A stretch of 63,595 nt of DNA, counting the filler. It is 8 parts of 8 records of this genome, joined end to end, with 100 filler letters (N's around TTAATTAATTAA, not from the genome) between each part and the next. Parts side by side here need not be neighbours in the genome. Positions count along the whole stretch, not along the records: positions 34,470 to 44,766 come from SRR20825010_6793; 7 more parts are not named here. One strand, written 5' to 3'. Below the pieces are notes generated by a model that did not search any database, was not told the DNA's origin, and was given only the letters and a program-made list of their open reading frames with translations. Both the position numbers and the translations under genes were made by a program. Position 1 is the first letter of the stretch. The number at the start of each line of letters is the position of its first letter. This document shows, piece by piece, positions 15,098 to 44,866 of the stretch.

Positions 15098-15101
15098 AAT
15101 C

Positions 15102-28054: not shown

Positions 28055-28144
28055 ATCGTTATTTTTTCAGATAAAACACTTATTAAAGGCTTTCATCAAA
28101 AATAATACTTTAAATTGTAATTATTATTCTTGTATTTTTGCAGT

Positions 28145-28537: not shown

Positions 28538-28540
28538 TTT

Positions 28541-29758
28541 TTGAATATCGCCCTGTACATAGCAAAAAGGTATCTGATTTCTAAAAGCAGTCAGAATGCA
28601 GTTAACATTATCAATTTTGTTACATTTTTGGTAATAGTAATTGGTGCAGCCTCTTTATTTGTTGTACTTTCTGCTTTTGCAGGACTTAAAACCTTAAGTC
28701 TTTCGTTTTCTAATTCTTTTGATCCCGACCTTAAAGCGGTTTCTACCGAAGGTAAATATTTCGATTTTACCGAAAACGATGCCCAAAACCTTAATAAAAT
28801 AGAAGGGATAGCCGATTATTCCAAAGAAATTGAAGAGCGGGTTTTCCTTACTTTCAAACAGAAAAATCATATAGCATATATCAAGGCTGTCGACAGTAAT
28901 TACACACATGTAACAGGCATTGATAGTATGTTGTATTACGGCAGTTGGATAGGAAAAGACCCCTACCAAGTAGTAAGTGGAATAGGAGTTGCAAATTTAT
29001 TGGGATTAGGGATTAACGATTATAGAAATCCGCTTGAAATTTTAGCGCCAAAACCAGGAGAAGGGAGTATTGCTACAGGAATTTCAGGCTCCCAAAGACC
29101 TTATAATGAACTATCGGTAACCCTTTCTGGGGTTTATGCAATAAACGACGATTTAGATAAAAAGTACGTATTTGCAAGCCTTTCCACCGTTCAGCCTTTA
29201 TTAGAGAAAAAAGAAAATCAAATCACAGGAATCAATTTTAAGATAAAACCTACAGCTCCTGTAGAATTAGTAAGCGCACAAATAGCAGCAGCATTAAGTA
29301 ATAAAGTAAGTTTAAAAACGCGTGCGCAACTCAACGATTCTCTTTATAAAATGCTCAATACCGAAAATTTGGTACTGTATCTCATCTTTACTTTGGTACT
29401 TATTATTGCACTTTTCAATGTTGTTGGCGCTATTATAATGATGATTCTCGATAAAAAAGACAACGCAACTACACTTTACAGTATGGGCGTATCTATAAAA
29501 CAACTAAAACGGATTTTCTTCTTACAGGGACTCCTAGTTACCGTTGTAGGCGGCATTGTAGGCATCGCTTTTGCATCGCTTTTAGTGTGGACACAAATTA
29601 CTTTTCAATGGATAAAACTTAGTCCAACCTTGGCATACCCTGTGGAATATAAGCTTATCAATATAGCCATTGTATTTGCCACAATTTTTGTTTTAGGATT
29701 TTTGGCATCCAAAATTGCTGCCAATCGAGTTAATAAACAACTTATTCAATATACTTAG
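28541..29758 (+). CDS. ABC transporter permease, LolC/E (FtsX-like) family
   Basis: IAKRYL start, one N-terminal TM, large periplasmic domain and three C-terminal TMs. Confidence 0.88.
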   Translation: MNIALYIAKRYLISKSSQNAVNIINFVTFLVIVIGAASLFVVLSAFAGLKTLSLSFSNSFDPDLKAVSTEGKYFDFTENDAQNLNKIEGIADYSKEIEERVFLTFKQKNHIAYIKAVDSNYTHVTGIDSMLYYGSWIGKDPYQVVSGIGVANLLGLGINDYRNPLEILAPKPGEGSIATGISGSQRPYNELSVTLSGVYAINDDLDKKYVFASLSTVQPLLEKKENQITGINFKIKPTAPVELVSAQIAAALSNKVSLKTRAQLNDSLYKMLNTENLVLYLIFTLVLIIALFNVVGAIIMMILDKKDNATTLYSMGVSIKQLKRIFFLQGLLVTVVGGIVGIAFASLLVWTQITFQWIKLSPTLAYPVEYKLINIAIVFATIFVLGFLASKIAANRVNKQLIQYT

Positions 29759-29864
29759 GAGCGCCAATTCTTGTGTAAATAGCTGTTGCTGTTTCCCGCT
29801 TTCGCCACTACACGGTAGTTGGCTCTATCGGGGCTAGCAGGTTTTGTTTGGGAGTTTAGATTTA

Positions 29865-30443
29865 TTAGCTACAGTATTTTTCAGCTTCATTAATATTTTT
29901 ATTAAGCTTTCTATTTGTTGTAATAAAATGTAAAATAATCATTCCATAAAACAATGATATTGGAACCTTCATAAAGATCCAATATGGATTATTACCTGAT
30001 ACTATTTGCCAAATTCCCATAATAAAAATTAAGATTACTAGGATTATTAGACTCCAGCTAGTTTTTATTCCATTGTTTAATTTGTCTACTATGCTTTTTA
30101 ATTCGTTATTAAGTTTATCAATTCCCTCAAATTCAACTTCAGAATTTATTTTTTTTAAATGCTTTAATAATTTAAGTTCAAAAAATTGATTAGGTAGGTT
30201 TATTACAAGGCTTAAACTTAAAATGGTCATTAGTCCCGATTTTTGCCAGATAAATATTTCATAATCAAATAGCTCAGGAATAATTGATAAAATTATTATT
30301 CCTACACTAATTATCGTAAAAGCTAAATTGAGAGTAATTGTTATTTTCAAAAACTCAATTCTTTTTTCAATTCCTTTTTTCGACTCTCCTAAATTTGATT
30401 TTAGAGAAACGATAATGTTTTTTCTTTCGTTCATTTTCTTCAA
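29865..30443 (-). CDS. Hypothetical 4-TM membrane protein
   Basis: 192-aa very AT-rich ORF with two hydrophobic hairpins. Confidence 0.7.
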   Translation of the reverse strand: MKKMNERKNIIVSLKSNLGESKKGIEKRIEFLKITITLNLAFTIISVGIIILSIIPELFDYEIFIWQKSGLMTILSLSLVINLPNQFFELKLLKHLKKINSEVEFEGIDKLNNELKSIVDKLNNGIKTSWSLIILVILIFIMGIWQIVSGNNPYWIFMKVPISLFYGMIILHFITTNRKLNKNINEAEKYCS

Positions 30444-30547
30444 AGGTATTGTCTCCTAAATATAGGAACAGATTATAATTGAATTCATGCTGCTAATTTC
30501 AATGTAATCATTTGAGGTTTAAATCCCTCATAGAAGGTCTAATTCCC

Positions 30548-30642
30548 CAACGCCTGCCCTGAGTCTATCGAAGGGTTTTGCGTTGAAATAGATTAAATTA
30601 TTTTTCTTTGAATACCTCGCGGGCTTGTTCCGAGGTAGTTAA
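30548..30642. repeat. Palindromic intergenic repeat (REP/MITE-like), homologous to 34470-34562
   Basis: CAACGC...GCGTTG outer stem, then AATACCTCGCGGGCTTGTTCCGAGGTAGTTAA; 25/32 identity by eye with the copy at 34531. Confidence 0.65.
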
Positions 30643-30663
30643 TTAAATTATTGAAGTTACTCT

Positions 30664-31824
30664 TTAATTGTCAAAATAGTTCTCAATCTCAAATTCAAAT
30701 TCAGATTTTTCTTCAGGTTTTATGGTAATATTTCCATAGGTTCCAATTACTTCCGCTTCAGATTCCCAATTTCCTTTTGTAAGCTTAAATTGTGCAGGGC
30801 TTTTAAGTTTTAATTTTATTTCCCGCTCTAAATCGGAAATTCTTTCTAATTCTATTTTTTCTGGATTCCAATCTCCTAAATTCTCTTGATTTCCTGTAAT
30901 GTATATGGTATCGTCTTTGTTTAAAACCTTTACTTTTATTGTAGTATCATATTCTTTTTTGCTTAGTTCCTTTTCCTGTAAATCATGGATGTTTTCGAAA
31001 TAAAAATCAAGTGCTTTATTTAAACTAACTGGAAAGGTATTCCAATGATTGTTTTCAGGGAATTTATCGATTTTAACTTTCAAGTTATCATTCTTTATTG
31101 ACTTGTTAAAAAAGGAATATACTTTCTCTCTAGCAGGTTTCCATTCCTGCCAGTATTTTATACCTTCATTTGCATTGCTTAAGTATAAATAAGTAGGTTT
31201 CTCTATTTTAGAATAATCAAAATTTACAAGTTTGTTTGCTAATTTGTCGTTATCATACGCAAGGTTTGGCGAAATAGCTATGTAATCGTTAAACAAGGAA
31301 TGATTTTTAATAAAAATATCTAAAACAAAGGAAGCACTTAATGAGTGTCCAATTGCTATTTTATTATTTAATGTTCTGTAATGAGAATCGATATATGGCA
31401 CGACTTCAGTGCTTACATAAGCAAAGAAATTATTAGCATTTCCAGAATATTTCCCGTACTTGTCAATAGAGTTTTTGGCTTCTAAAACAGGCAATAGGTC
31501 ATTATTTCTAGAGTAATCAAGTCCTTCATTATAAGGCGAAGTAATTCCAACAACAATAAAAGAATTGGTATTGTCGGTCAAAAAGGAAATTATAGAACTT
31601 GTATAATCAAAAAACTCTCTACTGTGGCTGTCAAATACATAGATTACGTTAAAGTATTCGTTAACTCGCCAATCGTAATCAATAGGAGTATAAATTAAGA
31701 TCTCCCTTTCTTGATTTAAAGATTTTGATTGGATTTTTACATTTTCAACTCGGGCAATATTTTGACCAAATGTTACACTTGTCCATAGGGCAATCAAAAT
31801 AATTATTATAATATTTTTCATCAT
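30664..31824 (-). CDS. Exported alpha/beta hydrolase (IroE/Fes-like esterase) with C-terminal CBM20-like domain
   Basis: Signal peptide, VIYVFD, nucleophile elbow GHSLSA, ENNHW; C-terminal IYITGNQENLGDWNP..FKLTKGNW. Confidence 0.8.
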   Translation of the reverse strand: MMKNIIIIILIALWTSVTFGQNIARVENVKIQSKSLNQEREILIYTPIDYDWRVNEYFNVIYVFDSHSREFFDYTSSIISFLTDNTNSFIVVGITSPYNEGLDYSRNNDLLPVLEAKNSIDKYGKYSGNANNFFAYVSTEVVPYIDSHYRTLNNKIAIGHSLSASFVLDIFIKNHSLFNDYIAISPNLAYDNDKLANKLVNFDYSKIEKPTYLYLSNANEGIKYWQEWKPAREKVYSFFNKSIKNDNLKVKIDKFPENNHWNTFPVSLNKALDFYFENIHDLQEKELSKKEYDTTIKVKVLNKDDTIYITGNQENLGDWNPEKIELERISDLEREIKLKLKSPAQFKLTKGNWESEAEVIGTYGNITIKPEEKSEFEFEIENYFDN

Positions 31825-31884
31825 AGTTGTATCGGTTTTGTTTAGTTATAAAAAATATTTTTGCTTGGTATAGAGAGCTGTTTT

Positions 31885-32979
31885 TTATGGCTCTTTATCG
31901 GCTATCAATTCCATAAAAAAATCTGATAATTTAGAAGCTCCATTATCTCCGCCATCGTCTATATTAGATAAAATTATAACGGTATACTTGTCTTTCATAA
32001 AATCCATTAATTCGCAATGAATTCCGTACCAACCTCCAGCATGACCAATAATGGTTTGATTGTATCTTTGGTCAACACCAATTCCATAGCCCATATTTGT
32101 ATTGTAACCTTTCACTTTTGGTTCAAACATCAATTCAGTTGTTCTTTTATTCAAAAGTTTATAATTTCTTAAGGCTTTTGAAAAGTTGAATAAGTCGCTT
32201 ATAGTAGAATAATAAAAGCCTCCTGGTGATGCTTTTGTTAAATAGTAGTCATTTTTCTTGAGAGTTTTATTTTCTCCAAACATCGACGTATATCCACTTG
32301 CTTTGTTTTTCACAATAGAATCAATTTCTAATTCGGTAGTGTTGTACATTTCCGCAGGTTTTAAAATGGCGTCCTTTACATAGTTGTAATAGTTTTTACC
32401 ACTAACTTTTTCTATAATTAGTCCAAGTATTACGAAACCTGAAGCACTATAATCATACTTAGTACCGGGTTTGGATAAAAGTGTATCGTTAACAAAAAGT
32501 GGAACAAAATCTGAAGTTTTCTGATAATCAATATTCTTTATCTTATCCCAGTCTGCAACGTAAAAGTTATTAAGACCCGAAGTGTGTGTTAGTAGCTGAT
32601 GAATGGTAACGGAATCTCTAACAATTTTGTTGGAATATTCGGGTAAATAGTCGCCAACAGGACTTTTTAATTTTATCTTTCCTTGCTCATATAGTTGTAG
32701 GGTTGCAACAGTCGTAAACAATTTGGTAATAGAAGCTATGTTGAATTTGGTATCGATATTGTTTTTTACGTTAAATTCAATATTTGCTAGTCCATAAGCT
32801 CGTTTCTCTATTATTTTGTTGTTATGTGCAATTAGTACTGTTCCCGAAAAATCGTCTTCACTTAAATTGTTAAGAAATAAATTGATTTCAGATTCTTTTT
32901 CAGTACCCGATTGTCCGAAACATAAAATTCCAGTCAATAAAAAAAGGATGATTATATAGTTTTTTGTTCTAATTGTCAT
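31885..32979 (-). CDS. Serine hydrolase, beta-lactamase class C/PBP-like
   Basis: FNIASITK (SxxK), LLTHTSG, YSAS (YxN variant) and GHAGG. Confidence 0.88.
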   Translation of the reverse strand: MTIRTKNYIIILFLLTGILCFGQSGTEKESEINLFLNNLSEDDFSGTVLIAHNNKIIEKRAYGLANIEFNVKNNIDTKFNIASITKLFTTVATLQLYEQGKIKLKSPVGDYLPEYSNKIVRDSVTIHQLLTHTSGLNNFYVADWDKIKNIDYQKTSDFVPLFVNDTLLSKPGTKYDYSASGFVILGLIIEKVSGKNYYNYVKDAILKPAEMYNTTELEIDSIVKNKASGYTSMFGENKTLKKNDYYLTKASPGGFYYSTISDLFNFSKALRNYKLLNKRTTELMFEPKVKGYNTNMGYGIGVDQRYNQTIIGHAGGWYGIHCELMDFMKDKYTVIILSNIDDGGDNGASKLSDFFMELIADKEP

Positions 32980-32991
32980 ACTCTATGCTTT

Positions 32992-34212
32992 TTATAAGTT
33001 GTTGGAAAAATTTCTAGGCACCCTAATCGGGATCAATTCTTTATATGTTAAGCATCGCCACACCCATTCTAATGGTCCGAATCTGAAATATTTTAACCAA
33101 ACCTTACTCCATATAATTTGAACGATAAAAACTATAATTGCAAGGATAAGTGCTTCTGATGGACTTAAAGTTTCATAAAGTTTAAACCCTATTGATGAAA
33201 ATAGAATTAGACCAATAAAGCTTTGCATTATGTAGTTAGTTAAAGCCATTCTACCTACATATTTTAAGGGAGACAAGACCTTTTTCCATTTAGTATTGTA
33301 GTATAACCAGCCAATAAGCCATAGGTAGAATAATCCCATTACAACGTCTGAAATCACCATTGCCTTGACGAATAATTCTCTATAATTTTCTAGTTTAAAA
33401 ATTTTAAGATCTACTAAAACAAACAGAAATGCTATTCTGTAAATATTTGTAATAGCAGTTATCAATAGTATGGGTGTTTTTATTTGCTGAATAAATGACT
33501 CTAATGAGTTATAAATTTTGTTTTTACCGAGGTAAAGCCCCAATAAAAACATTGAAAAGGCTATGGGTGCTAAAAATCCGAAAAGCATTGGAATATTAGA
33601 AATATATTCTAAAATCCTTAATTTTAAACCTTCCAAATAAGTTCCATGTTTAATTATTTTGTTTACCATTGCTCCCGTATACTCTTTTAAATAGACTTCT
33701 GGTTGGAAATTTATAAGACTGAATAAAAATTCAAAAACCTGATTATAAAACGGAAAAAAAAGAAAGACACCCGATAGAATAAGAATTAATTTGTTTGGCC
33801 ATTTTATTATAAGTGTAGTAAACAAGCCAAGAATAGCATAAAGATTTAAAACATCTCCAGACCATAATAATATAATATGTAAAACTCCAATTAAAAATAG
33901 GATTAACATACGCCTTCCAAAAAAGGAAAATAATAATCTATTTTCATCAAGCATTTTTAATGCTTGTATTGAAATACCTAATCCAAAAAGCAGTGAGAAT
34001 ATCGGGAAGAATTTAGTGTAAAAAAATAACTGAAGTATTTTCTCCGAAATTTGGTCAATGTTAGAAGTAAACTGTAAAGCAAATTCGTCCTGATTTAAAA
34101 AGGTTGAATTCATAATGGTAATATTGACAACAAATATTCCTAAGATTGCAAATCCTCGGAATATATCTAATATTTCAATTCGTTTTTTTGATTTAGTTGG
34201 TTGGGTGTTCAA
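32992..34212 (-). CDS. DUF418 (YeiB-like) membrane protein
   Basis: LDIFRGFAILGI, GRMALTNY and GPLEWVWR. Confidence 0.9.
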   Translation of the reverse strand: MNTQPTKSKKRIEILDIFRGFAILGIFVVNITIMNSTFLNQDEFALQFTSNIDQISEKILQLFFYTKFFPIFSLLFGLGISIQALKMLDENRLLFSFFGRRMLILFLIGVLHIILLWSGDVLNLYAILGLFTTLIIKWPNKLILILSGVFLFFPFYNQVFEFLFSLINFQPEVYLKEYTGAMVNKIIKHGTYLEGLKLRILEYISNIPMLFGFLAPIAFSMFLLGLYLGKNKIYNSLESFIQQIKTPILLITAITNIYRIAFLFVLVDLKIFKLENYRELFVKAMVISDVVMGLFYLWLIGWLYYNTKWKKVLSPLKYVGRMALTNYIMQSFIGLILFSSIGFKLYETLSPSEALILAIIVFIVQIIWSKVWLKYFRFGPLEWVWRCLTYKELIPIRVPRNFSNNL

Positions 34213-34469
34213 TTTTCTCTATAGTATTTAGGCATAAACCAAATATACGTTAAAATAGCTTTGTTGTAATTTAACAACGTGTATTGCAAGGGGTAAGGGT
34301 TCTATTTTGAGAACCTCATTTAAACCTTGATATAAGTGGGTTCAATAAATTCCGTTAACTTTTATCGGANNNNNNNNNNNNNNNNNNNNNNNNNNNNNNN
34401 NNNNNNNNNNNNNTTAATTAATTAANNNNNNNNNNNNNNNNNNNNNNNNNNNNNNNNNNNNNNNNNNNN

Positions 34470-34562
34470 CCGACGCTTGCCTGCCCGTTCCATTCAGGCT
34501 GGCGTCGAAATATAAAATTAGGGTTCTTTCAATGCTTCGCGGACTTGCCCCGGGGTAGTTTA
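34470..34562. repeat. Palindromic intergenic repeat (REP/MITE-like), homologous to 30548-30642
   Basis: CGACGC...GCGTCG outer stem, then AATGCTTCGCGGACTTGCCCCGGGGTAGTTTA. Confidence 0.65.
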
Positions 34563-34789
34563 CTGTTTATTAGAACCCTGTTTCCTACGCTTATCGGGAT
34601 CAGTATCCAAAAACTTTGGGAGTCCACATTTGGCAAAAGGCAGTGGGCAGTGAAATCCGTTTTTTTTTTTTTTGCTTACTGCCAATTGACCACTTATTAC
34701 CCAGTCTCTGCCAAGGAATTCCATTCCGTTCCAAAACTTCTGCCTTTAACGTCCCTAACATCTTTTGCTTTCTTGTTTCGGGATTATTT

Positions 34790-35125
34790 TTATCCAAAAT
34801 CATTATCCGTTATTATTTTAAAAACTAAATTATGTAACTCCTCATTAACTGGAATTTGGCATGCCAATCTACTTTGAGGGCAGGCCTCATCCAGATGGAA
34901 CAAGGTCTGTTTTTCTTCTTTTTGCATTTTCGAACTTAAAGAGCCTTCAAGAATATGTATATGGCAAGTTCCGCACCATGCCCTGCCCTTACAGTCTCCC
35001 CATTCCTGTAAATATTTGTCAAAAAGTAGTTCCATGAGGCTATGGTATTCGTTTGGCCTACAAGTGGCAGAATTGGTGTCCCCAAATTCGTCTAAATAGG
35101 TAAAAGTGTAAGGTTCCAGCTTCAT
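34790..35125 (-). CDS. 2Fe-2S ferredoxin, adrenodoxin type
   Basis: CKGRAWCGTCH and SRLACQ. Confidence 0.9.
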   Translation of the reverse strand: MKLEPYTFTYLDEFGDTNSATCRPNEYHSLMELLFDKYLQEWGDCKGRAWCGTCHIHILEGSLSSKMQKEEKQTLFHLDEACPQSRLACQIPVNEELHNLVFKIITDNDFG

Positions 35126-35131
35126 TTATCT

Positions 35132-35425
35132 TTAAATAAGAATCGCTACAATGGTCAAGATACTGAAAAGGACGCTCATAACTAATAGGTTAAAAGTTGC
35201 TTTAGCACTTAATCTGGCCAAAACGGCACCGTTATAGGCCATACATAAAATAGTTACCAGAAACAGCAAGGTCAATTTAATACCGGCAGGAATGTGGTTC
35301 ATAAGGACTACCATGGCGGCAACAGACCCAATACAACTTTGGCCTATAATGGCAATGGTGGAATACCCGGTTTGTTCCCTTTTAAATTCACTTAATAATT
35401 GATTGTAAAGTCTCATAATCATCAT
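35132..35425 (-). CDS. Small 3-TM membrane protein
   Basis: Hydrophobic 97-aa ORF with 6- and 9-nt gaps to its neighbours. Confidence 0.75.
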   Translation of the reverse strand: MMIMRLYNQLLSEFKREQTGYSTIAIIGQSCIGSVAAMVVLMNHIPAGIKLTLLFLVTILCMAYNGAVLARLSAKATFNLLVMSVLFSILTIVAILI

Positions 35426-35434
35426 ATTTAAGTG

Positions 35435-35896
35435 TTATTCCCAAAATCTATCTGTGGTATTTTCCAAAAATTTGGTTTGGTTATGATGTTCTAAAATGAA
35501 TTGTAATTGTTGTTCGGTAGCCACCTTCTGAATTTCATTGAACAGTACCCTTTCTTCAAATCGGATATGTTGTTCCAGTTCTTCCTCTATATGGTTTAAG
35601 GACTTTTTTAATTCGGAGGTACTCTTGAAAAGGCGATCTAGTCTACGATGTTGTGCAATGGCCTTTTTTACCAAGATGTGGTCATTTCCAAGAATTGGGA
35701 AGAGGTGTTTTTCCTCCTCTTCAAAATGGGGGGTCAAATAGGTTTTGTAAAACCAATCAGCGTAGGTCTTTATCCGATCTGTAGACACTCCTTTGGAAAG
35801 ACCGGTCCTAATTTTCCATGACAATAACAAACCTTGATGGTGTTCCCTGCTCAAAGGTTGTATGGCTTTATGTCTTTTTATAGGTTTAACTTTCAT
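35435..35896 (-). CDS. Hemerythrin-like domain protein
   Basis: LSREHH, HFEEEE, H and HIRFEE di-iron ligand pattern. Confidence 0.85.
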   Translation of the reverse strand: MKVKPIKRHKAIQPLSREHHQGLLLSWKIRTGLSKGVSTDRIKTYADWFYKTYLTPHFEEEEKHLFPILGNDHILVKKAIAQHRRLDRLFKSTSELKKSLNHIEEELEQHIRFEERVLFNEIQKVATEQQLQFILEHHNQTKFLENTTDRFWE

Positions 35897-36083
35897 ATCA
35901 AATTGTTTTTATATGGTTATGGCCAAGGCTGAGGGAGGTACTACCAATGTGCTGTGCTTGACAGTTAAGGGGCCTTGTAGGCCAATGAGGCACGGCGGGG
36001 GGGATTATCTTAGTATTATGCCGCACCTTATTGGCTACAAAATTGGCCTCCAGGGGATAGGGTTATTGGTTTTTTGGCAACGC

Positions 36084-36809
36084 TTAAGCGCTTAATTCTT
36101 TTTCCAGCGCAATAGCTTTTGGGAAGAGTATATTATTCTCCAAATGTATATGTCTATGCAGATCCTCTTCAAATTCCTGTAGTAGGGAAAATGTTACCCT
36201 ATAGGTGTTGCAGGCATCTGCAGGTGGATTATAGTTATTGCTCAACTTCTCTATAAGTCTAAATCTGTCACCTTCGTTCTCATGCTCCATCATCATCATT
36301 TGTATAGGATTTTGAATAGTGCCAAAATGTTGTTCTGCCAGTGTACTACCGTATTGTTTGCTCTGTATCATTTTGCGGACGGCAGGGAAGACGATGAGTT
36401 CCTCTTTTTTCATGTGCATGGCCAATTCTCCGGCACTTTTATTGAAATGCTCCGTAATTTCATAAAGCTCTGGATGCCGATCTCCATGTACCCGACATAG
36501 CTTGGCCAGATATTGATTTAGAATAGGTATTTGTGCCTCCACATATCTATGATGTTTTTTCTCTATATAATCTGCCAATAGGTCCAAGGGCCATGTTTTA
36601 AAATCGATATTGTCATTATTGGTCTGATGCTGCACCGTTTCAATTTCCTGTAAAAGTAGATTGGGGTCCAGTTTACTTTTTTCGGCAACCTCTACAATAC
36701 TTCGGTTGCCCTTACAACAAAAATCTATTTTATGATTTTTGAACACTTGTGCCGTACGGTAGTTTTCTGCTACTATTTCACCAATGTTTTTGGTCATTAA
36801 GTTTTCCAT
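36084..36809 (-). CDS. ric: Iron-sulfur cluster repair di-iron protein (RIC/YtfE/ScdA)
   Basis: IDFCCKG, HHRY, HMKKEE, MEHE and HIHLENNILFP. Confidence 0.96.
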   Translation of the reverse strand: MENLMTKNIGEIVAENYRTAQVFKNHKIDFCCKGNRSIVEVAEKSKLDPNLLLQEIETVQHQTNNDNIDFKTWPLDLLADYIEKKHHRYVEAQIPILNQYLAKLCRVHGDRHPELYEITEHFNKSAGELAMHMKKEELIVFPAVRKMIQSKQYGSTLAEQHFGTIQNPIQMMMMEHENEGDRFRLIEKLSNNYNPPADACNTYRVTFSLLQEFEEDLHRHIHLENNILFPKAIALEKELSA

Positions 36810-36814
36810 AGTTA

Positions 36815-37120
36815 TTAATTTTTAAAATTTATAATTGAATCTGTCGCCATAATGGCTACTGCTTTAAAATCCTTTAATACGGTAAGACTATGTTCCAATC
36901 CTGCCGGAACCAACATGGTAGAACCTTTCTTCAATATGTAATTAGTATCCTTGGTCTTAAGGATTGCCTTACCTTCTTGGACAACAATGACGGCTTCATG
37001 TGAACTGCTGTGTTCTGGCATCCCCATGTTCGCCGAGGCTTGAATTTGTAGTACTTTAAGCTTTTTACCTATCTCAAGGTGCGTCAATTGTGGCCTGTTC
37101 AATACTTCCATAATGTTCAT
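36815..37120 (-). CDS. Cupin domain protein
   Basis: MPEHSSSHEA..VQEG and PAGLEHSL; start at 37120 or 37111. Confidence 0.82.
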   Translation of the reverse strand: MNIMEVLNRPQLTHLEIGKKLKVLQIQASANMGMPEHSSSHEAVIVVQEGKAILKTKDTNYILKKGSTMLVPAGLEHSLTVLKDFKAVAIMATDSIINFKN

Positions 37121-38027
37121 TTTTATGATTAATTCCCCAATTTTGTTTTTCGATTTCCGTCCATAAACTTGGAAAGAATTTTCGTTGCTGATATTTTGGA
37201 TGGAGGTATTTTTTCCAATCCGAACCACCAGTAGCCTGTTTGTTTTCTCCTTTTTGGTCCAAATAATGTTCGGCAGTGCTTAAATGGACCATTGGCCAGT
37301 CTATATTGTATAGCCTGTCGAAGGTGCGAAGTCTATTTCTGAGTGCATCCGGGACATAGGGCAGTTGGTCCAACTTGTCTTCCAAGGTATTCCCCATTAC
37401 AGTTTTGGCTGTTTCTGTCAACTTTGGGAGATATTTTTCCTCAAATAGTTGAAGTGTCAAGGTCTTTTTGCCAGTTTTGGGATCTGTTCCGGCATCTTTC
37501 CAATAAATATGTTCAAAACATTCCCTTAAATCTGGATTGTTGGAACGTTCTTTTTTAAATCTCTGGCTAATTAAATTTACCAAGGAGGTACAGTGCAGTT
37601 CAATAAACCGGAATTGCACGGATTGAAAGCCACTGGCAGGGGTTAAGGTTTTTCGAAAGGTATTGTAATCCTCATAGTCCATTCCGACCTTCATGATATC
37701 AAAGGAATTGATAAGCATGGAGGTGTAATGTATAAGTCGGTCCACTTTATTAATGAGAAAGGCAGTAGTAGGTATTTTTTCATCTACTATCTGTTCTAAT
37801 TCATGGAGCATCATCTTCAGGTACAATTCGGTAACTTGATGGTACATGATAAAAATGGACTCATCCTTAAAATTGGTCCTCGGCCTTTGAAGGGAAAGCA
37901 GGGTCTCCACTTCTACATAATCCCAATAGGTAATAGGCTTTGCGTGTAGTAGGCCCTCCAGATAGGTGTCGGGATTTTCCCCAAGGGAGTGGTATTTTTC
38001 GACTAATTTGTTGGTAATGTTTAACAT
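37074..38027 (-). CDS. Tryptophan 2,3-dioxygenase family protein
   Basis: YWDY..LLSLQ, FIMYHQVTEL, PASGFQSVQFR and ATGGS motifs. Confidence 0.92.
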   Translation of the reverse strand: MLNITNKLVEKYHSLGENPDTYLEGLLHAKPITYWDYVEVETLLSLQRPRTNFKDESIFIMYHQVTELYLKMMLHELEQIVDEKIPTTAFLINKVDRLIHYTSMLINSFDIMKVGMDYEDYNTFRKTLTPASGFQSVQFRFIELHCTSLVNLISQRFKKERSNNPDLRECFEHIYWKDAGTDPKTGKKTLTLQLFEEKYLPKLTETAKTVMGNTLEDKLDQLPYVPDALRNRLRTFDRLYNIDWPMVHLSTAEHYLDQKGENKQATGGSDWKKYLHPKYQQRKFFPSLWTEIEKQNWGINHKNEHYGSIEQATIDAP

Positions 38028-38129
38028 GGACAGATTGTTATTGATTTAATGTTAATATTGACAACATGGTTCGTTCGTTTTTAAATTTAAAGAGTTTAAT
38101 ACCTTTTTATCTTTTATTAGTTTAAATTT

Positions 38130-38564
38130 TTATCTCTTTAGATGGGTTAGACCCATATCCAATCCTGTGGCCAATTCATAAAGGCTTGTGTTTTGCAGCA
38201 TGATCTTTAGATTGTCCCTAATCCCCACAAATTTATCATGAACAGGACAAGGTTGGCTGGCATCGCATTGTTCCAGACCCAGACCACAGCCAACAAATAT
38301 TTTGTCACCGTCTATGGCATGTACTATATCGTGTAATTTAATGGTATCTATTTTAGGTTCTTCGATCTGGAATCCTCCTGTAGGGCCTTTATGGGAATCT
38401 ATAATCCCACTCTTGGCCAAGGACTGCAATATTTTTGCGGTAAATGCCACGGGAGAATTTACCTCCTCTGCTATCTCCTTAAGGCTTACACGCTCTTGCC
38501 GCAAAGATTTTACTGCTATGTATATGGTAGCTTTAATTCCGTACTCGCAGGCCTTTGAAAACAT
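38130..38564 (-). CDS. Rrf2 family transcriptional regulator with three C-terminal Cys
   Basis: SHKGPTGGF wing, IVHAIDG and CGLGLEQCDASQPCPVH. Confidence 0.93.
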   Translation of the reverse strand: MFSKACEYGIKATIYIAVKSLRQERVSLKEIAEEVNSPVAFTAKILQSLAKSGIIDSHKGPTGGFQIEEPKIDTIKLHDIVHAIDGDKIFVGCGLGLEQCDASQPCPVHDKFVGIRDNLKIMLQNTSLYELATGLDMGLTHLKR

Positions 38565-38607
38565 ATTGATACTATATTAAATCGTTACAAATATAATGCT
38601 TATTCTT

Positions 38608-38631
38608 ATTTCGGACAAATTTATCCTAAAT
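38608..38631. promoter_or_regulatory. Candidate Rrf2 operator (imperfect palindrome) at the rrf2 promoter
   Basis: ATTTCGGACAAATTTATCCTAAAT; minus-strand TATATTTG -7 element at 38588-38595. Confidence 0.6.
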
Positions 38632-38677
38632 AATTAATTATTCCATTTTTTTAATAAGGGTCCAGGGCTTTTTAAGA

Positions 38678-39754
38678 CTAATGCTCCCCGTAGCCTATAT
38701 CGTCCATTTTTCCCTTGAATACCCTGTATTGAATAAATATATAGACAATTAGAAGGATTAGGGCAATTATAAACCAATATATACCCACAGAAAGGCCGTA
38801 TTCATCTGCTGCAACATTGTAAACGGTCAAAGCCGGATTCACCGTATTGGTCGATGGCAACAGCTTTGGAAAAATAGACGCCGCGGTGGAGGCAAAACCT
38901 CCAAGGATAAATAGGGAGGAAAATATAAATCCTGTCCCATCCTTTTTAAAGGTCTTTATTAGAAAAAGTCCAAATAGCCCGATCAGGGTCAATAATGGAA
39001 AAATCCACAGCCATGGCGTTTCAATAAAATTATGAAAGGGCCTTGGAGCTATAACATGCCACACCACAAGGGAGAGGATTACCAAAGCGAGCAGGACGAA
39101 ATTGAGTTTAAAAATAACGGTTCTTAATTTATTGTTGAGGTCCGAGTTGGTCTTATAGATTATCCAATTGGCGCCATGGATGGTCAGAATGACCACCGCC
39201 ACCAGCCCCAGTAAAATGGTAAACCAATCTATAATGCCCAAATGTGCTGCCGTTGGACTAAAAGAGGGATTCCATAAAGGGAGAAAAAAATAGTGGGCTT
39301 CGTGGGCAGATATTCCATTTTCCACCATGCCTAAATTTACGCCCCTAACAACATTGCCCATGGCAATTCCAAAGAAAAGGGCCAAGAGGAAACTAGCTAC
39401 ACCGAAGGCCTTGTCCCAGACCGCTTCCCATAATTTGTTATGGATCTGACCTCTGAGTTCCAAACCTATCGCCCTAAAGATCAGTAGCCAAAGAATCATG
39501 ATCAGCGGCAGATAAAATCCACTGAAAGAAGAGGCATATAAGGTAGGAAAAGCAAAGAAAAGAACACCTCCAGAAGCAATGAGCCAGACTTCATTGGCAT
39601 CCCAAAACGGACCAATAGCATTGGTAATGGCCTTTTTATCCTTTTCTTTCTTTGCGAAAAATAAATGTACTATTCCCGCGCCAAAATCATAGCCATCCAA
39701 AACTACATAAATGGCCAACATACACATTAAAACAACGTACCAGAATAATTCCAT
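38678..39754 (-). CDS. cydB: Cytochrome bd ubiquinol oxidase subunit II
   Basis: LDGYDFGAG, GPFWDANEVW and AFPTLY. Confidence 0.96.
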   Translation of the reverse strand: MELFWYVVLMCMLAIYVVLDGYDFGAGIVHLFFAKKEKDKKAITNAIGPFWDANEVWLIASGGVLFFAFPTLYASSFSGFYLPLIMILWLLIFRAIGLELRGQIHNKLWEAVWDKAFGVASFLLALFFGIAMGNVVRGVNLGMVENGISAHEAHYFFLPLWNPSFSPTAAHLGIIDWFTILLGLVAVVILTIHGANWIIYKTNSDLNNKLRTVIFKLNFVLLALVILSLVVWHVIAPRPFHNFIETPWLWIFPLLTLIGLFGLFLIKTFKKDGTGFIFSSLFILGGFASTAASIFPKLLPSTNTVNPALTVYNVAADEYGLSVGIYWFIIALILLIVYIFIQYRVFKGKMDDIGYGEH

Positions 39755-39756
39755 AT

Positions 39757-41088
39757 TTAAGCTTCAACGGTTACAGGTCCTTTATTTATAATTTTACCAA
39801 CGAGTATCAAAAATAGCATTCCCAAAAGTAGATACAATCCAATAAACCCTAATAAGGTGAACAAAGTATTTCCAGAGGATACTGTTGGTGATATTCCTTC
39901 AGAGGTGCGCAAAAGGTTATAGACCAACCAAGGCTGTCTCCCCAACTCTGCGGTATACCAACCAGTTGTATTGGCAATATAGGGAAAGGGGAGGAAAAAT
40001 AGCAGGCACCATAAAATCCACTTGGTGCCGTATAGTTTTTTACGCCATAACTGAAAGGCACCCAACGCCATAATTCCAATAAATAAAGTTCCTAGCCCTA
40101 CCATTATGTGGTAGGCATAATATAAGCCTGGAATATTGGTAGGATAGTTTTCCGGTTCAAATTCGTTCAACCCTTTTACTTTGGCATCCCATTTTTTGTA
40201 GGTTAAAAAACTAAGTATATTGGGTACCGCAATTTTATTGTCCAATTTTTTGTCGACCACATTGGGCTGCCCAATTAGAACAATTTCCGATCCACCATCC
40301 TGGGTTTCAAATAATCCTTCCATGGCCGCAAAAGTAACAGGCTGATGTTCCACTACATTTTTAGCGGCCCAATCGCCCGTTGGGAAGGCTACCAATACAG
40401 AGGACACAAGTCCAAATATTACCCCGGTCTTAACAAATAGTTGGCCGAAACTACTGTGTTTGTTGTTCAAAATATAAAAGGCACCTATGGATGCCATTAC
40501 AAAAGATGCGGTTACCAAACTGGCCAACTGATTGTGTAAATAGGAGGGCAAGAGCCAAGGGTTGGAGAATAGGGCACCAAAATTAGTCAATACAAATTTG
40601 CCATTGCTCAATATTTCATATCCTACCGGATGTTGCATCCAGGAATGCGTGGCTATGATTAAAAAACCACTGGCCCAAGAACCTAGAAAAACCAAGAAAC
40701 CGGTTACAAAGTGCAATTTGTGTCCCAATAATTTCTCGCCGAACAAAAACAGGCCCAAAAAGGAAGATTCCAGAAAAAAGGAGAACATTCCTTCCATGGC
40801 CAAGGTCTGCCCAATAATTCCACCGGTCAATTCGGAAAATTTGGCCCAATTGGTCCCAAATTGAAATTCCATTGGTATTCCGGTTACAACCCCCATGGCA
40901 AAATTAAGGGCAAAGATCCGCATCCAGAATTTGGCTGCATCATTATATTGATCAATTCGGGTTCTGAGGAATTTCCACTTAAAATAAACGATGATCAGGG
41001 AGAGGCCCATAGTGAGTTGTGGAAACAAATAGTGGAAGGTGATAGTAAAGGCAAATTGCATTCTATCATAAAAGAGCATATCCTCCAT
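39757..41088 (-). CDS. cydA: Cytochrome bd ubiquinol oxidase subunit I (short Q-loop)
   Basis: FHYLF, GIPMEFQFGTNW, FFLES, AAMEG and ELGRQPW. Confidence 0.97.
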   Translation of the reverse strand: MEDMLFYDRMQFAFTITFHYLFPQLTMGLSLIIVYFKWKFLRTRIDQYNDAAKFWMRIFALNFAMGVVTGIPMEFQFGTNWAKFSELTGGIIGQTLAMEGMFSFFLESSFLGLFLFGEKLLGHKLHFVTGFLVFLGSWASGFLIIATHSWMQHPVGYEILSNGKFVLTNFGALFSNPWLLPSYLHNQLASLVTASFVMASIGAFYILNNKHSSFGQLFVKTGVIFGLVSSVLVAFPTGDWAAKNVVEHQPVTFAAMEGLFETQDGGSEIVLIGQPNVVDKKLDNKIAVPNILSFLTYKKWDAKVKGLNEFEPENYPTNIPGLYYAYHIMVGLGTLFIGIMALGAFQLWRKKLYGTKWILWCLLFFLPFPYIANTTGWYTAELGRQPWLVYNLLRTSEGISPTVSSGNTLFTLLGFIGLYLLLGMLFLILVGKIINKGPVTVEA

Positions 41089-41203
41089 GAAAAAAACTTA
41101 AGGTTTATTTTGGCTTAAATTTAAATAACAAAAAATTAAATTAGGTAACAGTGGTTACATAATTGCTTATTTAAATTGAATAAAAACAAATTGATCCAAT
41201 ACC

Positions 41204-41215
41204 TGACAAATGTCA
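41204..41215. promoter_or_regulatory. Palindrome TGACA-AA-TGTCA in the divergent promoter region (Crp/Fnr-like TGA-N6-TCA)
   Basis: Perfect 5-bp arms; lies between cydA and the 124-aa ORF. Confidence 0.55.
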
Positions 41216-41309
41216 TCTTTTTATGAATTGGATATGCATTATATTTGTGCTGTATTTTAAATATTGCAGTCTTTTGTCATTCAAGTTTGCATCAATTTGA
41301 AAATTAATA

Positions 41310-41684
41310 ATGAAGCATTTAATCCTATTTGTTGCTATAATTATGCTGATAAAGCCTCTCTGGCCCTTAGCAGAATATGCAGTAAATTACGATTACATTG
41401 TGGAGAACCTTTGTGAAAACAAGGATACCCCTTCCTTGCATTGCGATGGTAAATGTTACCTGGCCAAACAATTGGCCAAAGAATCGGAGGGAAACGATAA
41501 AAATCCATTTGAAGGCAAACGGGTCAATGTGGAAATTCAGTATATTTCTTCGTTCCACCCATTACTGGTTCTTGAATCGGACAATGAATACGACAGTACC
41601 GTTCAAAATAATTATAAGGGAATCCAAACTTTGATTCCCGGTCTGTATACCACAGATATTGCACAGCCACCAGAGCTGGGATAA
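41310..41684 (+). CDS. Cys-rich small protein, candidate metal-responsive upstream ORF
   Basis: N-terminal hydrophobic helix, LCENKD.P.LHCDGKCYL and C-terminal QPP. Confidence 0.8.
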   Translation: MKHLILFVAIIMLIKPLWPLAEYAVNYDYIVENLCENKDTPSLHCDGKCYLAKQLAKESEGNDKNPFEGKRVNVEIQYISSFHPLLVLESDNEYDSTVQNNYKGIQTLIPGLYTTDIAQPPELG

Positions 41685-41775
41685 TTCAATTATCGCCATA
41701 AAAGTATTCGGTTGATTCTAAACCTTGTACAAGTCTATGGCGTCTTAACGGAATTGTATTATCTAAATAAATCAA

Positions 41776-43839
41776 ATGAACATTATTAAATGTGTCCATA
41801 AGGTATTCACAATACTTATGGAAGCAAGCAGGCCTATAAACAGGTGGATGTTTTTATGGGGAATATTTATTTTTCCAATTAACATTGGCGCGCAGGAATT
41901 GGTATTACATAAGGATTCTATCATAACGATCAATCTGGACGAAGTTATCCTTATTTCGGCCAGAAAGACTTTGGATTACCACCGCCAGCCAAAACCCCTC
42001 TCAACCCTGGACGAGTATCTGGAATCCTCCAAAAAGGTAGATATGGTGAAACGTGGAGCCTATGCCTGGGAACCCACTTTGAACAATATGTTTTCGGAAC
42101 GCCTCTCTGTGACTATTGATGGAATGAGGATTTTTGGTGCTTGCACGGACAAGATGGACCCAGTAACCTCCTATGTGGATGTGTCCAATTTATCGCAGGC
42201 TCATATAGCTTCTGGACAGCAGGGCACCGAACACGGAAACACCATTGGTGGGGCCATAAATTTGGAGCTTGACCGTGGTAATTTTAAGGAAACAGGATTA
42301 TATGGTGGCGTGGAGACGGGTTTTGAGAGCAACAACCAAATGAGTGTGGTTGGGGCCGAAATTAATTATTCGGATTCCAATTATTATTTGGACACGGATA
42401 TCATTTATCGCAAGGCAGAAAATTATTTTGCCGGGGGTGATGAAGAAGTTGAGTTCTCCCAATTTGAAAAGTATAATTTTTCGACAAATGGCGGATACAA
42501 ACTTGCAGAAGATCAGGCCTTGACGGCCAGTCTTATTTATGATGAGGCCAGGGATGTGGGCTATCCGGCATTAACTATGGATGTTTCCTTGGCTAGGGCC
42601 ATTATAGCATCGGTAGGTTTTGAGCAGGATGCTTTATGGGGCAGTTTAAACAATTGGAAATCTAAGTTGTATTTTAACAAGGTTACCCATGTCATGGATG
42701 ATACCAAACGACCTGATGTACCCATACATATGGATATGCCGGGTTGGAGCGATACCTATGGCTTTTACTCCCAAGCAGCTCTAAAGGCCAAAAAGCATCA
42801 ATTTTTATTTAAGATTGATGGGTATTACAATAAATCTTTGGCCGAAATGACGATGTATCCCAATGATCCGAACGAGTTGCCCATGTTTATGCTCACCTGG
42901 CCCGATGTGCGTACCGCCAACGGCGGGGTATATGCGGAGGATGAGCTGGATTTAAATGGTAGTTTTCTTAAGTTGGCGACCAGGCTGACCGTTCAAAACC
43001 AGAATGTTGCGGACGAATTGGGATTGAATAGCTTAAAGATTTTTTATCCGGAAATGGAGAAATCTAAAATGCGGTTCCTAAAAAGTATTTCAGGGCAATG
43101 GCATAAAATGTGGATGCCATGGCATTTTAATGCGGGACTTTCCTATGGGGATAGGGCACCTTCCGTGACCGAGGGCTATGGGTTTTATTTGTTCAACAGT
43201 TTTGACAATCACGACTACATTGGGGATCCGGGTCTTGCCAACGAAAAATCCATGGAGGCCAATACTAAAATCTCCTGGGAAAAATCCAAATTTAAGCTAA
43301 GTGCCGAGGCCAATTTTTTCCATATCGCAGATTATATTATTGGGGAAATTGATCCTTCCCTGAGTGTGATGACCATAGGGGCTGAAGGAGTCAAGATCTA
43401 TAAAAATCTGGAGTACGCCCAATTGTTCAACACTTCCTTGGATATGGAATACACCATTCTGCCAGAACTGAAATGGTCGGGTTTGATTTCATATCATCGT
43501 GGTACGGACAACAATGGTGGTAACATACCTTTTATAAGTCCATTTTCTTACCGGTCCGGTCTTCAGTTTGATAATAGGTCATTTTCAGCAGCCCTTAGGA
43601 TAACTGGTGCAGGGAAACAAGTGAACTATAACCCCGAATTCGGGGAAGATCAAACACAGGCCTATACGGTTTGTTCCTTGACCTTTGGCAAGACTTTTAA
43701 ATTTAACAACGATTCCATGTACGCAAAGTTCGGGGTAGAGAATATTTTTGATGAATACTACTCCACCTATACGGATTGGAAAAACATCCCAAGAATGGGG
43801 CGAAACTTCTTTTTAACACTTTCTTATTCCATTAATTAA
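41776..43839 (+). CDS. TonB-dependent receptor, OprC/NosA-like copper type
   Basis: Plug motif GACTDKMDP (CxxxM), HVMDD and HMDMPG, C-terminal GRNFFLTLSYSIN. Confidence 0.82.
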   Translation: MNIIKCVHKVFTILMEASRPINRWMFLWGIFIFPINIGAQELVLHKDSIITINLDEVILISARKTLDYHRQPKPLSTLDEYLESSKKVDMVKRGAYAWEPTLNNMFSERLSVTIDGMRIFGACTDKMDPVTSYVDVSNLSQAHIASGQQGTEHGNTIGGAINLELDRGNFKETGLYGGVETGFESNNQMSVVGAEINYSDSNYYLDTDIIYRKAENYFAGGDEEVEFSQFEKYNFSTNGGYKLAEDQALTASLIYDEARDVGYPALTMDVSLARAIIASVGFEQDALWGSLNNWKSKLYFNKVTHVMDDTKRPDVPIHMDMPGWSDTYGFYSQAALKAKKHQFLFKIDGYYNKSLAEMTMYPNDPNELPMFMLTWPDVRTANGGVYAEDELDLNGSFLKLATRLTVQNQNVADELGLNSLKIFYPEMEKSKMRFLKSISGQWHKMWMPWHFNAGLSYGDRAPSVTEGYGFYLFNSFDNHDYIGDPGLANEKSMEANTKISWEKSKFKLSAEANFFHIADYIIGEIDPSLSVMTIGAEGVKIYKNLEYAQLFNTSLDMEYTILPELKWSGLISYHRGTDNNGGNIPFISPFSYRSGLQFDNRSFSAALRITGAGKQVNYNPEFGEDQTQAYTVCSLTFGKTFKFNNDSMYAKFGVENIFDEYYSTYTDWKNIPRMGRNFFLTLSYSIN

Positions 43840-43853
43840 TTAAAATAAACATA

Positions 43854-44717
43854 ATGAAAACAATAAAACTAGTTCTAGTAACATTTGTAGCCACTTTAGG
43901 ATTATCATCATGTTCATCTGATGGGGACGACACACCAAAAATTGATGTAAATCCTATGGCCGAATTTAATTTGATATCAAATATTGTGGCCAATGGCCAT
44001 AGTTTGGAACTGTATTCCGAAGGGAAAACCGGTTTTACAACAGGATACAACCAACTTTTTGTCCGTATTAAAAATAATGCCGATGATACTTATTACGCCA
44101 ATCCTGAAATTACATGGAAACCTGTAATGCACATGATGAGTATGGAACATTCCTGTCCAATATCCGGACTAAGTATTTCGAATGATTACGACACGGTGGC
44201 AACAGGATATATCGTTTTCCAGATGCCTGGCAATGCCGATGAATTTTGGGACATAACCTTTACCTATGAGGTAGAGGGACAGGAATTTTCTATGACCGAA
44301 ACTATAGATGTTTCTGCTCCAATCGATGATAATCAAACGGTTTCTGTATTTATGGGAAGTGATGACGTAAGATATGTCTTGGCAATGGTGGAACCAAAAG
44401 ATCCAGAAGTTGCGGTTAACGACATGACTGCTATGTTATTTAAAATGGAAAGTATGATGAGCTTTCCCCTTGTGGAAAATTACACGGTAACTTTAGATCC
44501 GCGTATGCCGGGGATGGGCAACCACAGTTCCCCCAACAATGAGGATCTAACCTATGATACGGCTACCAAATCTTATAAGGGAAAATTGTCCTTGACAATG
44601 ACGGGGTATTGGAAACTTAATCTAAAACTATTGAACAGTACCGGAGAAGTTTTAAAAGGAGAAGACATAACCGAAGAAAACGAAGCCAGTAGCTTATACT
44701 TTGAATTGGAATTTTAG
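43854..44717 (+). CDS. Lipoprotein with two YtkA/FixH-like Met/His modules
   Basis: Lipobox LSSC; PVMHMMSMEHSCP...FQMPG..W and PRMPGMGNHSSP...LTMTGYW. Confidence 0.72.
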   Translation: MKTIKLVLVTFVATLGLSSCSSDGDDTPKIDVNPMAEFNLISNIVANGHSLELYSEGKTGFTTGYNQLFVRIKNNADDTYYANPEITWKPVMHMMSMEHSCPISGLSISNDYDTVATGYIVFQMPGNADEFWDITFTYEVEGQEFSMTETIDVSAPIDDNQTVSVFMGSDDVRYVLAMVEPKDPEVAVNDMTAMLFKMESMMSFPLVENYTVTLDPRMPGMGNHSSPNNEDLTYDTATKSYKGKLSLTMTGYWKLNLKLLNSTGEVLKGEDITEENEASSLYFELEF

Positions 44718-44866
44718 TTAGTACTCCTATGCAATAAAAAAGAGGCTGTCTAAAAAGTCAAGACAGNNNNNNNNNNNNNNNNNNNNNNNNNNNNNNNNNN
44801 NNNNNNNNNNTTAATTAATTAANNNNNNNNNNNNNNNNNNNNNNNNNNNNNNNNNNNNNNNNNNNN

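Follow-up and report, generated by a model that had tools for sequence, protein, structure and literature searches.

Why should a gene for tryptophan 2,3-dioxygenase (TDO), an enzyme usually seen as catabolic or NAD-biosynthetic, stand in an operon that is led by an Rrf2-type regulator and shared with an iron-sulfur (Fe-S) repair protein? This question is raised by a stretch of DNA of 63.6 kb (63,595 nucleotides in all, hereafter the window). One of its contigs, at positions 34470-44766 (10.3 kb), carries seven co-oriented genes on the minus strand, in the order rrf2, TDO, cupin, ric, hemerythrin-like gene, a gene for a protein with about three transmembrane (TM) segments, and 2Fe-2S ferredoxin. 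The contig, from a marine flavobacterium, is Arenibacter-like: its identity is 84-92% with eight close Arenibacter loci and about 72-75% with the A. aquaticus locus (L013), and the gene order is the same in all of them. We found that this is very probably a real, conserved and Rrf2-controlled operon of nitrogen-oxide and low-oxygen physiology that contains a genuine TDO paralogue. Furthermore, we propose that the operon is autoregulated under an NsrR-like Rrf2 protein and that its TDO is a stress isozyme for the synthesis of NAD from tryptophan (Trp); as a whole explanation, this proposal has in our judgment a little less than an even chance of being right.

The seven genes had been listed in an earlier note on this DNA, and all of them were recovered by open reading frame (ORF) listing and family scans. 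The first gene, rrf2 (38130-38564), encodes 144 amino acids and belongs to the Rrf2 superfamily (PF02082, 90.5 bits; TIGR00738, 88.8 versus a cut-off of 73.3). The TDO gene (37074-38027) encodes 317 amino acids that pass the PF03301 gathering threshold (90.3 versus 34.9 bits, with residues 32-176 aligned). The next gene, which extends from 36815 to about 37111-37120, encodes a single-domain cupin of ~98-101 amino acids (Cupin_2, 29.7 versus 27.2) with the metal motif HxxxHE...G-x5-PxG-x2-H and weak NCBIfam matches to ureidoglycine aminohydrolase-type cupins. The product of ric (36084-36809; 241 amino acids) combines ScdA_N (PF04405) and hemerythrin (PF01814) domains and scores above the equivalog cut-off of RIC/YtfE-type di-iron Fe-S repair proteins (TIGR03652, 245.6 versus 204.7). 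It is followed by a hemerythrin-domain protein of 153 amino acids (35435-35896; PF01814, 42.5 bits), the hydrophobic protein with about three TM segments (35132-35425; 97 amino acids), which has no family match, and a 2Fe-2S ferredoxin of 111 amino acids (34790-35125; PF00111, 28.4 bits) with the motif C-x5-C-x2-C...C and a weak fdx_isc match. No kynurenine-pathway genes were found by family scans on this contig, which agrees with what the note had said of the surroundings.

The spacing of the genes is mostly tight. The overlap of TDO and cupin that the note had pointed out amounts to 38-47 nt, depending on which cupin ATG is chosen, and the gaps under 10 nt are those between cupin and ric (5 nt), between the hemerythrin and 3-TM genes (9 nt), and between the 3-TM gene and ferredoxin (6 nt). 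Meanwhile, rrf2 and TDO are separated by 102 nt, and ric and the hemerythrin gene by 187 nt. The latter gap (35897-36083) is without an ORF in the window, and a DUF488 gene occupies this place in three relatives (L017, L018, and L054). The numbers of sites in sigma-70 promoter and terminator scans were not above those of shuffled sequence (24 versus 21.5 and 4 versus 7.1, respectively), and the same scan gave no terminator-like site on the minus strand from rrf2 to ferredoxin. We also compared four runs, all as contigs, of which X2 and X4 are recorded as RNA. The stretch from ferredoxin to rrf2 is covered by contigs of at least 90% similarity from the marine metatranscriptome X2, and one of these contigs bridges TDO and cupin. 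On the other side, the contig of the window ends 320 nt past the ferredoxin stop, and thus the operon may be cut at its 3′ end. In the Arenibacter relatives, a truncated-globin gene lies 3′ of ferredoxin, and a convergent nos cluster comes next.

Is the second gene product a true TDO? The profiles alone answer this only in part: both PF03301 and TIGR03036 align just the N-terminal half of the protein (residues 30-176), and its score with TIGR03036, the KynA equivalog, is 98.3 against a cut-off of 390.7. The housekeeping TDO of Arenibacter has a similar Pfam score (82.8 bits) and similar E-values against the Protein Data Bank (PDB). We therefore turn to structure and residues. The AF2 model, built from an alignment with 42 relatives, the most distant of which share 29% identity, has a pLDDT of 89.9 and a pTM of 0.86, and its best PDB matches in Foldseek were all TDO chains (probability 1.00; 280-360 columns; TM about 0.5), with ~20-22% identity in the structural alignments. 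When the protein is aligned to 2nox and 2nw7, H63 corresponds to the distal His (H55 of 2nw7), the carboxylate-binding pair is matched by Y121 and R125, and the SGFQS loop by S132-S136; a further, weak stretch of alignment puts H248 at the proximal His and T266-G268 at the TGG motif. Among the 42 relatives, H248 is invariant, and H63, R125, SGFQS, and TGG are at least 90% conserved; Y34, Y37, and F59 are conserved as well. By its predicted fold and its residues, the protein is a catalytically intact TDO, and its activity is a prediction from them. In addition, V247 and L249, which flank the proximal His, and L70 in the distal helix are specific to the clade of this TDO (clade A, see below), and these sites could be places to tune O2 or nitric oxide (NO) affinity. 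As a separate observation, the TDOs of another clade, B2 (for instance L085:8804-9763), have Phe instead of the substrate-carboxylate Tyr (Y121 of the operon TDO), with a Tyr placed three residues further on. The substrate-carboxylate Tyr is kept in clades A and B1 and in the solved TDOs, and the stress copy is more canonical than B2 at this site.

The result of phylogenetic analysis showed that the operon TDO belongs to a separate clade, as had been suggested. The FastTree tree comprised 146 sequences and 306 columns (60 clade-A loci, 24 clade-B loci, and 62 representatives from a library at 50% identity). Clade A, which includes the operon TDO and all linked loci, had a support of 0.94; clade B1, the 307-aa type, had 0.99; clade B2, the syntenic housekeeping copy, had 1.00; and clades A and B1 together had 0.97. 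The note had also expected a housekeeping TDO alongside, and two PF03301 matches were indeed present in 5/5 Arenibacter genomes searched. The second Arenibacter copy belongs to B2, is 47% identical to the operon TDO, and stands in the order uvrC, patatin/Omp85, HPPD, DUF3108, TDO, M23 peptidase, and PGI. The single clade-B2 TDO of an unrelated genome (G001) stands in the same order. For nine genomes, both copies could be placed on the tree, and the pair was A plus B2 in all nine; here, the extra copy is the linked clade-A gene and the other is the syntenic B2 gene. We further investigated a panel of 201 Flavobacteriaceae genomes, one per genus except two of G001's own genus, in which clade-A membership was taken as at least 54% identity to the operon TDO. 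A TDO match was found in 175 of them and clade A in about 24.

The linkage of TDO to ric and rrf2 is likewise not confined to the organism of the contig. The 80 best genomic relatives, all of clade A, were dereplicated at 85% identity into 42 clusters, from which 41 representative loci were used; their neighbours within 6 kb were clustered, and the clusters were scanned against Pfam. At least one neighbour related to N-oxides or low O2 was found in 33/41 loci. For instance, there were 24 loci with truncated globin, 23 with rrf2, 16 with ric, 15 with hemerythrin, 11 with a cbb3-like oxidase, 10 with the 3-TM gene, 9 with nos genes, and 8 with ferredoxin, and the cupin lay between TDO and ric in 4 loci. 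A looser count over the 42 clusters (within 7 kb) gave co-oriented rrf2 in 23, ric and hemerythrin in 16 each, ferredoxin in 12, the 3-TM gene in 11, and cupin in 7. Judged by their record titles, the linked loci represent three orders, Flavobacteriales, Chitinophagales, and Saprospirales. Furthermore, a larger recurrent unit was seen, which begins with rrf2, a cbb3-like heme-copper oxidase pair, two small proteins, and truncated globin, and continues with an unknown 147-aa protein, TDO, cupin, ric, DUF488, hemerythrin, the 3-TM gene, and ferredoxin. Other arrangements are nosZ-L-D-F-Y followed by TDO and globin, and ccoNOP-G-H followed by globin and TDO beside nos genes. TDO and globin are the last genes after nosZ-L-D-F-Y in three loci (L031, L024, and L042), and the truncated globin (PF01152) is the immediate neighbour of TDO in 10/41 loci. 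No kynureninase or 3-hydroxyanthranilate dioxygenase (3-HAO) homologue was found within 7 kb of TDO in 100 clade-A loci. With regard to the 147-aa protein (L017:6561-7001 and orthologues, in 11/41 loci), it is always immediately upstream of the clade-A TDO and usually follows truncated globin; it has no Pfam or NCBIfam match and is not on the operon contig.

What controls the operon? The earlier note spoke of three Cys in the Rrf2 protein. The translation has four, C6 and the three C-terminal ones, and the latter form the cluster C93-x6-C100-x5-C106-x2-H109, whose members are putative Fe-S ligands. A palindromic candidate operator of 22 bp, TTTAGGATAAATTTGTCCGAAA, lies 45-66 nt before the rrf2 ATG (38609-38630, minus strand), with the core GGATAAATTTGTCC at 38613-38626. 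The Bacteroidetes -7 promoter consensus is TAnnTTTG. A -7-like box, TATATTTG, is found at 38588-38595 on the minus strand, and a TTTG -33-like element stands 20 nt upstream of it, inside the palindrome, so that palindrome and promoter element overlap. The exact core GGAYAWWWWWRTCC occurs once in the 63.6-kb window. In addition, an equivalent palindrome was found 43-70 nt before rrf2 in at least 13 of 22 upstream regions of other loci. The operator sequence can be written as GGAYA-N5-RTCC.

This pattern gave 42 hits in A. echinorum (G002) against 12 for the reversed control, and 33 against 20 in A. palladensis. Most of the remaining hits in the genomes G002 and G003 are intragenic, and we discounted them as chance matches. 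We kept the conserved intergenic sites: the rrf2 operator itself; an operator-like site of A. echinorum that precedes by 164 nt the first gene, for cytochrome c, of the nos operon (cytochrome c, fasciclin, nosZ, nosL, nosD, nosF, and nosY) and is conserved in A. palladensis; and a site before nirK, TAAAGGACAAAAAAGTCCTTTA, which directly follows a TAttTTTG box and has one mismatch in the second species. Thus, the palindrome stands at the promoter of rrf2 itself in the window, and Arenibacter relatives have similar sites at the promoters of nirK and nos; because of these sites, we tie the regulon to nitrogen-oxide and low-oxygen physiology and read the regulator as NsrR-like in function. As predicted from these sites, the regulon spans nitrite reduction, nitrous oxide (N2O) reduction, and the operon described here. 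An operator before cydA was also considered and rejected: the candidate TGACATTTGTCA has a different spacing, and the pattern with one mismatch gave no match there. A perfect core GGATAAATTTGTCC was also observed in A. echinorum (L147; G002:C3:723900-728900, site 2514), where it precedes a P-type ATPase gene by 107 nt and lies within or beside a Fur-family ORF; no exact counterpart of it was seen in A. palladensis.

Taking these results together, we propose the following mechanism. The Rrf2 protein would be an Fe-S-type repressor, NsrR-like yet no NsrR orthologue, that binds the 22-bp palindrome over its own promoter. Attack on the Fe-S cluster by NO or by a related agent would release the repressor, and RIC, the hemerythrin protein (for di-iron repair or sensing), ferredoxin, and the second TDO would then be made. 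The clade-A TDO would keep the heme- and O2-dependent first step of the route from Trp through quinolinate to NAD running, and the isozyme might be needed at low O2, with the housekeeping TDO poisoned or oxidised by NO. In addition, the ferredoxin may donate electrons by which ferric heme or di-iron centres regain their active ferrous form. NAD supply as the purpose of the clade-A TDO is the more tentative part, and we hold it to be plausible at somewhat short of even.

The distribution of the NAD genes is relevant here. NadA was not found in the Arenibacter representative (G046, 100% complete), and thus the O2-dependent Trp route appears to be the sole de novo source of NAD in Arenibacter. 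For the same reason, the idea that this TDO is a backup for an NO-sensitive NadA was rejected for Arenibacter. 3-HAO was present in 5/5 Arenibacter genomes, with one match each. In a 42-genome panel (24 clade-A, 10 B-only, and 8 no-TDO genomes), kynureninase was found in 24/24, 10/10, and 2/8 genomes, respectively; NadA in 6/24, 6/10, and 7/8; RIC in 22/24, 4/10, and 4/8; and nosZ in 19/24, 4/10, and 3/8. Counted over all genomes without clade A, RIC occurs in 8/18 and nosZ in 7/18.

Several points weigh against this proposal. The non-A genomes of the panel were hand-picked, and the co-occurrence ratios are indicative only. Of the 24 clade-A genomes, 11 yielded no TDO other than that of clade A, and in 7 of these 11 NadA was not found either. 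In three genomes (G103, G050, and G036), the sole TDO lies inside an Rrf2-led cluster and NadA was not found, so a strictly stress-induced TDO would leave these cells without de novo NAD in normal growth. Furthermore, O2 is also required by kynurenine 3-monooxygenase and 3-HAO, for which we saw no stress copies; for 3-HAO, the single match in each of the five Arenibacter genomes leaves no such copy there. The linkage itself is incomplete: it is absent from 8/41 dereplicated loci, and in the panel sample rrf2 is nearby in 9/20 clade-A loci and nothing is linked in about 10/20. The Rrf2 protein falls far below the NsrR equivalog cut-off (NF008240, 29.9 versus 182), and its closest solved structures are CymR, RsrR, and IscR; for these reasons it could sense iron, Fe-S, or redox status and not NO. 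As for the RNA-library contigs, they are no proof of a single transcript and may include carried-over DNA. Thus, the claim of the earlier note that this is a specialised copy recruited to stress defence stands in part. Conserved linkage, the separate clade, the second copy in relatives, and the shared operator type speak for it, and the 11 genomes with clade A as sole TDO, together with the unlinked half of the panel loci, speak against a purely stress-only role.

These points lead to other explanations of the locus. The operon might answer Fe-S, iron, redox, or O2 status, with an IscR- or RsrR-like regulator, and might be a general module of metallo-cofactor maintenance and microoxic life in which TDO is one more client. 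The ligand spacing C-x5-C-x2-H is nearer to the IscR pattern than to that of NsrR, the SUF regulator (59.8 bits) and IscR (55.4 versus a cut-off of 207.6) profiles score above NsrR, and the neighbours include cydAB, cbb3-type oxidase genes, and the assembly genes ccoGH. However, every score is far under the equivalog cut-offs, the operator-like sites precede nirK and nos, which are genes of N-oxide respiration, and RIC, truncated globin, and the cbb3/NOR-like oxidase (NOR, nitric oxide reductase) are typical of NO regulons such as those of NsrR and NssR. We consider this explanation somewhat unlikely. A deeper doubt would be that the linkage has no meaning at all, with clade A as one Bacteroidota kynA lineage in an old, decaying neighbourhood near respiratory genes. 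The genomes that have clade A as their sole TDO would fit this, as would the loss of all linked genes in 8/41 loci and in about 10/20 panel loci, and the association could go back to one ancestral arrangement. Nevertheless, the linkage is kept in three orders of bacteria despite differing gene orders (after nosY, after ccoGH, and in the globin-ric interval), the genes are closely spaced or overlap, the TDO gene is enclosed in the unit that runs from the operator-bearing rrf2 promoter to ferredoxin, and the linked copy is clade A and the other the syntenic B2 in 9/9 two-copy genomes on the tree. Neutral linkage is therefore improbable in our view.

Meanwhile, the role of the enzyme itself can be read in other ways. 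The clade-A TDO might serve heme chemistry and not Trp catabolism, with a Trp-bound oxy-ferrous complex that turns NO into nitrate, or that buffers or senses O2. Its partner would be the truncated globin of group-III type found with it in most relatives, it would protect NosZ and the high-affinity oxidases, and the ferredoxin would re-reduce the ferric heme after each turnover. The truncated globin near 24/41 loci and adjacent in 10, the TDO-globin pair that closes three nosZ-L-D-F-Y clusters, the ferredoxin in the operon, the clade-specific residues beside the proximal His, and the lack of a kynurenine-pathway gene beside any of 100 loci are all in its favour. On the other hand, the residues for the carboxylate and ammonium groups of L-Trp are all kept, which would be unexpected if Trp turnover were unimportant; in the 11 of 24 panel genomes with clade A alone, all of which have kynureninase, the enzyme must feed the pathway; and the B2 copy is also unlinked to pathway genes, so missing linkage says little. 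We regard it as unlikely. Its extended form would make clade A a new class of the TDO superfamily, namely a Trp-gated heme protein that acts as NO dioxygenase or as O2 buffer or sensor, which is a shade more unlikely again. To the same slight degree we would credit the idea that this class works with truncated globin, the 147-aa partner, and ferredoxin in guarding N2O reductase and the high-affinity oxidases. A further possibility concerns products: kynurenine, 3-hydroxykynurenine, or 3-hydroxyanthranilate could be scavengers, chelators, or signals in nitrosative stress, and the cupin could process the TDO product. The cupin start over the TDO 3′ end suggests translational coupling, the cupin has a full metal motif and weak similarity to cupin amidohydrolases, and kynureninase and 3-HAO are present in Arenibacter genomes. 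However, the cupin accompanies TDO in only 4/41 loci (7/42 clusters in the looser count), and no pathway genes are co-located, which makes this the most improbable of the explanations that we weighed.

The other parts of the window need a short description. The window consists of eight contigs from at least three organisms and is not one genome. The contigs are joined by seven artificial linkers of the form N44-TTAATTAATTAA-N44, at 5816-5915, 16027-16126, 27422-27521, 34370-34469, 44767-44866, 50291-50390, and 57389-57488, and the fourth of these (no strand) is the left edge of the Arenibacter-like contig. The DNA to the left of this linker has 100% identity to the unrelated genome G001, and the contigs 10001-16026 and 27522-34369 are 99-100% identical to it. 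G001 matches only other contigs of the window and not the operon contig, and it is a different organism. The contigs beyond 44867 have 53-60% G+C and match neither G001 nor Arenibacter. The assembly of the window is thus a mixed bin or culture. In the G001-like part, a repeat of ~130 nt (30519-30656) has more than 40 copies across G001 with 78-85% identity, and a second short repeat at a contig end (34295-34369) occurs several times. Both resemble dispersed intergenic repeats or elements similar to miniature inverted-repeat transposable elements (MITEs) of the G001-type organism.

On the operon contig, cydA and cydB (38678-41088, minus strand; family scan), which encode cytochrome bd oxidase, lie directly upstream of rrf2, co-oriented and with a gap of 113 nt, and carry no operator; they were absent from the earlier gene list. 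No run contig lies over cydAB, and missing cover was not counted as evidence. The cydAB segment (38634-41300) is an indel: it is present in 8/11 close Arenibacter loci and cleanly missing in three (L009, L011, and L014), whose flanks are otherwise collinear despite the loss. On the plus strand, a divergent trio at 41310-44717 encodes a 124-aa protein, a TonB-dependent copper-receptor-like protein (41776-43839; TIGR01778, 130.9 bits versus a cut-off of 472), and a 287-aa protein; the first and the last have no Pfam or NCBIfam family. This trio recurs beside nos clusters in other Bacteroidota loci, and thus it is perhaps a copper-uptake module for NosZ.

In the full-text literature, in which subscription journals are not covered, we came across no account that places a bacterial TDO in the context of NsrR, Rrf2, NO, nos, or denitrification. 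A term search of one paper (PMC9697520) gave only a 'tryptophan deaminase' and no TDO in an NO, Rrf2, or nos context. The locus may be of interest in several respects. A distinct lineage of TDO would take part in the NO, N2O, and low-O2 response of many Bacteroidota. If this lineage provides a stress isozyme, it illustrates how an O2- and heme-dependent pathway is shielded during denitrification or NO attack in aerobes whose de novo NAD comes from Trp alone. If it serves heme chemistry, a new activity is added to a medically important enzyme family, and if clade A is a new class, Trp oxidation is wired directly into bacterial nitrogen-oxide respiration. In addition, the A/B2 pair is a natural pair of paralogues for comparing O2 affinity and NO tolerance. 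The locus also offers a defined candidate operator and regulator for nirK and nos in the marine Flavobacteriaceae, which matter for N2O consumption, and several conserved partner proteins of unknown function.

Finally, the operon can be compared with known systems. A pathway from Trp through quinolinate to NAD is said to have been described in Cytophaga and Flavobacteria by Kurnasov and co-workers in 2003. The Bacteroidota housekeeping TDO (B2), which belongs to such a pathway, is of the same family and length class as the operon TDO and co-occurs with kynureninase and 3-HAO; it differs in sequence (47% identity), in its separate clade, and in its neighbourhood of HPPD, DUF3108, TDO, M23 peptidase, and PGI. 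The operon TDO resembles the KynA proteins of X. campestris (2NW7) and C. metallidurans (2NOX) in fold, distal His, substrate Arg/Tyr, SGFQS, proximal His, and TGG. However, unlike kynA in an operon with kynB or kynU, it stands beside neither gene (0/100 clade-A loci, and none on the contig), and it is placed under an Rrf2 operator with NO-repair genes. The NssR regulon of Campylobacter, which includes cgb and the truncated globin ctb, is NO-responsive. It is similar in that a truncated globin is paired with other heme proteins in an NO-responsive regulon, and it differs in that its regulator is of the Crp/Fnr family and no TDO is included. The known NsrR regulons of E. coli, Bacillus, Neisseria, Nitrosomonas, and Streptomyces contain ytfE/ric, globin, nirK, and respiratory oxidase or NOR-type genes. 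Our operon shares with them an Rrf2 repressor, a Cys-rich Fe-S motif, a palindrome over the promoter, and overlapping targets, as predicted here. However, its Rrf2 protein is no NsrR orthologue and has its own operator, GGAYA-N5-RTCC, and the regulon holds a TDO, a small cupin, a hemerythrin protein, and a ferredoxin. A conserved TDO member of an NO-type Rrf2 regulon is thus an unexpected addition to a known kind of regulon.

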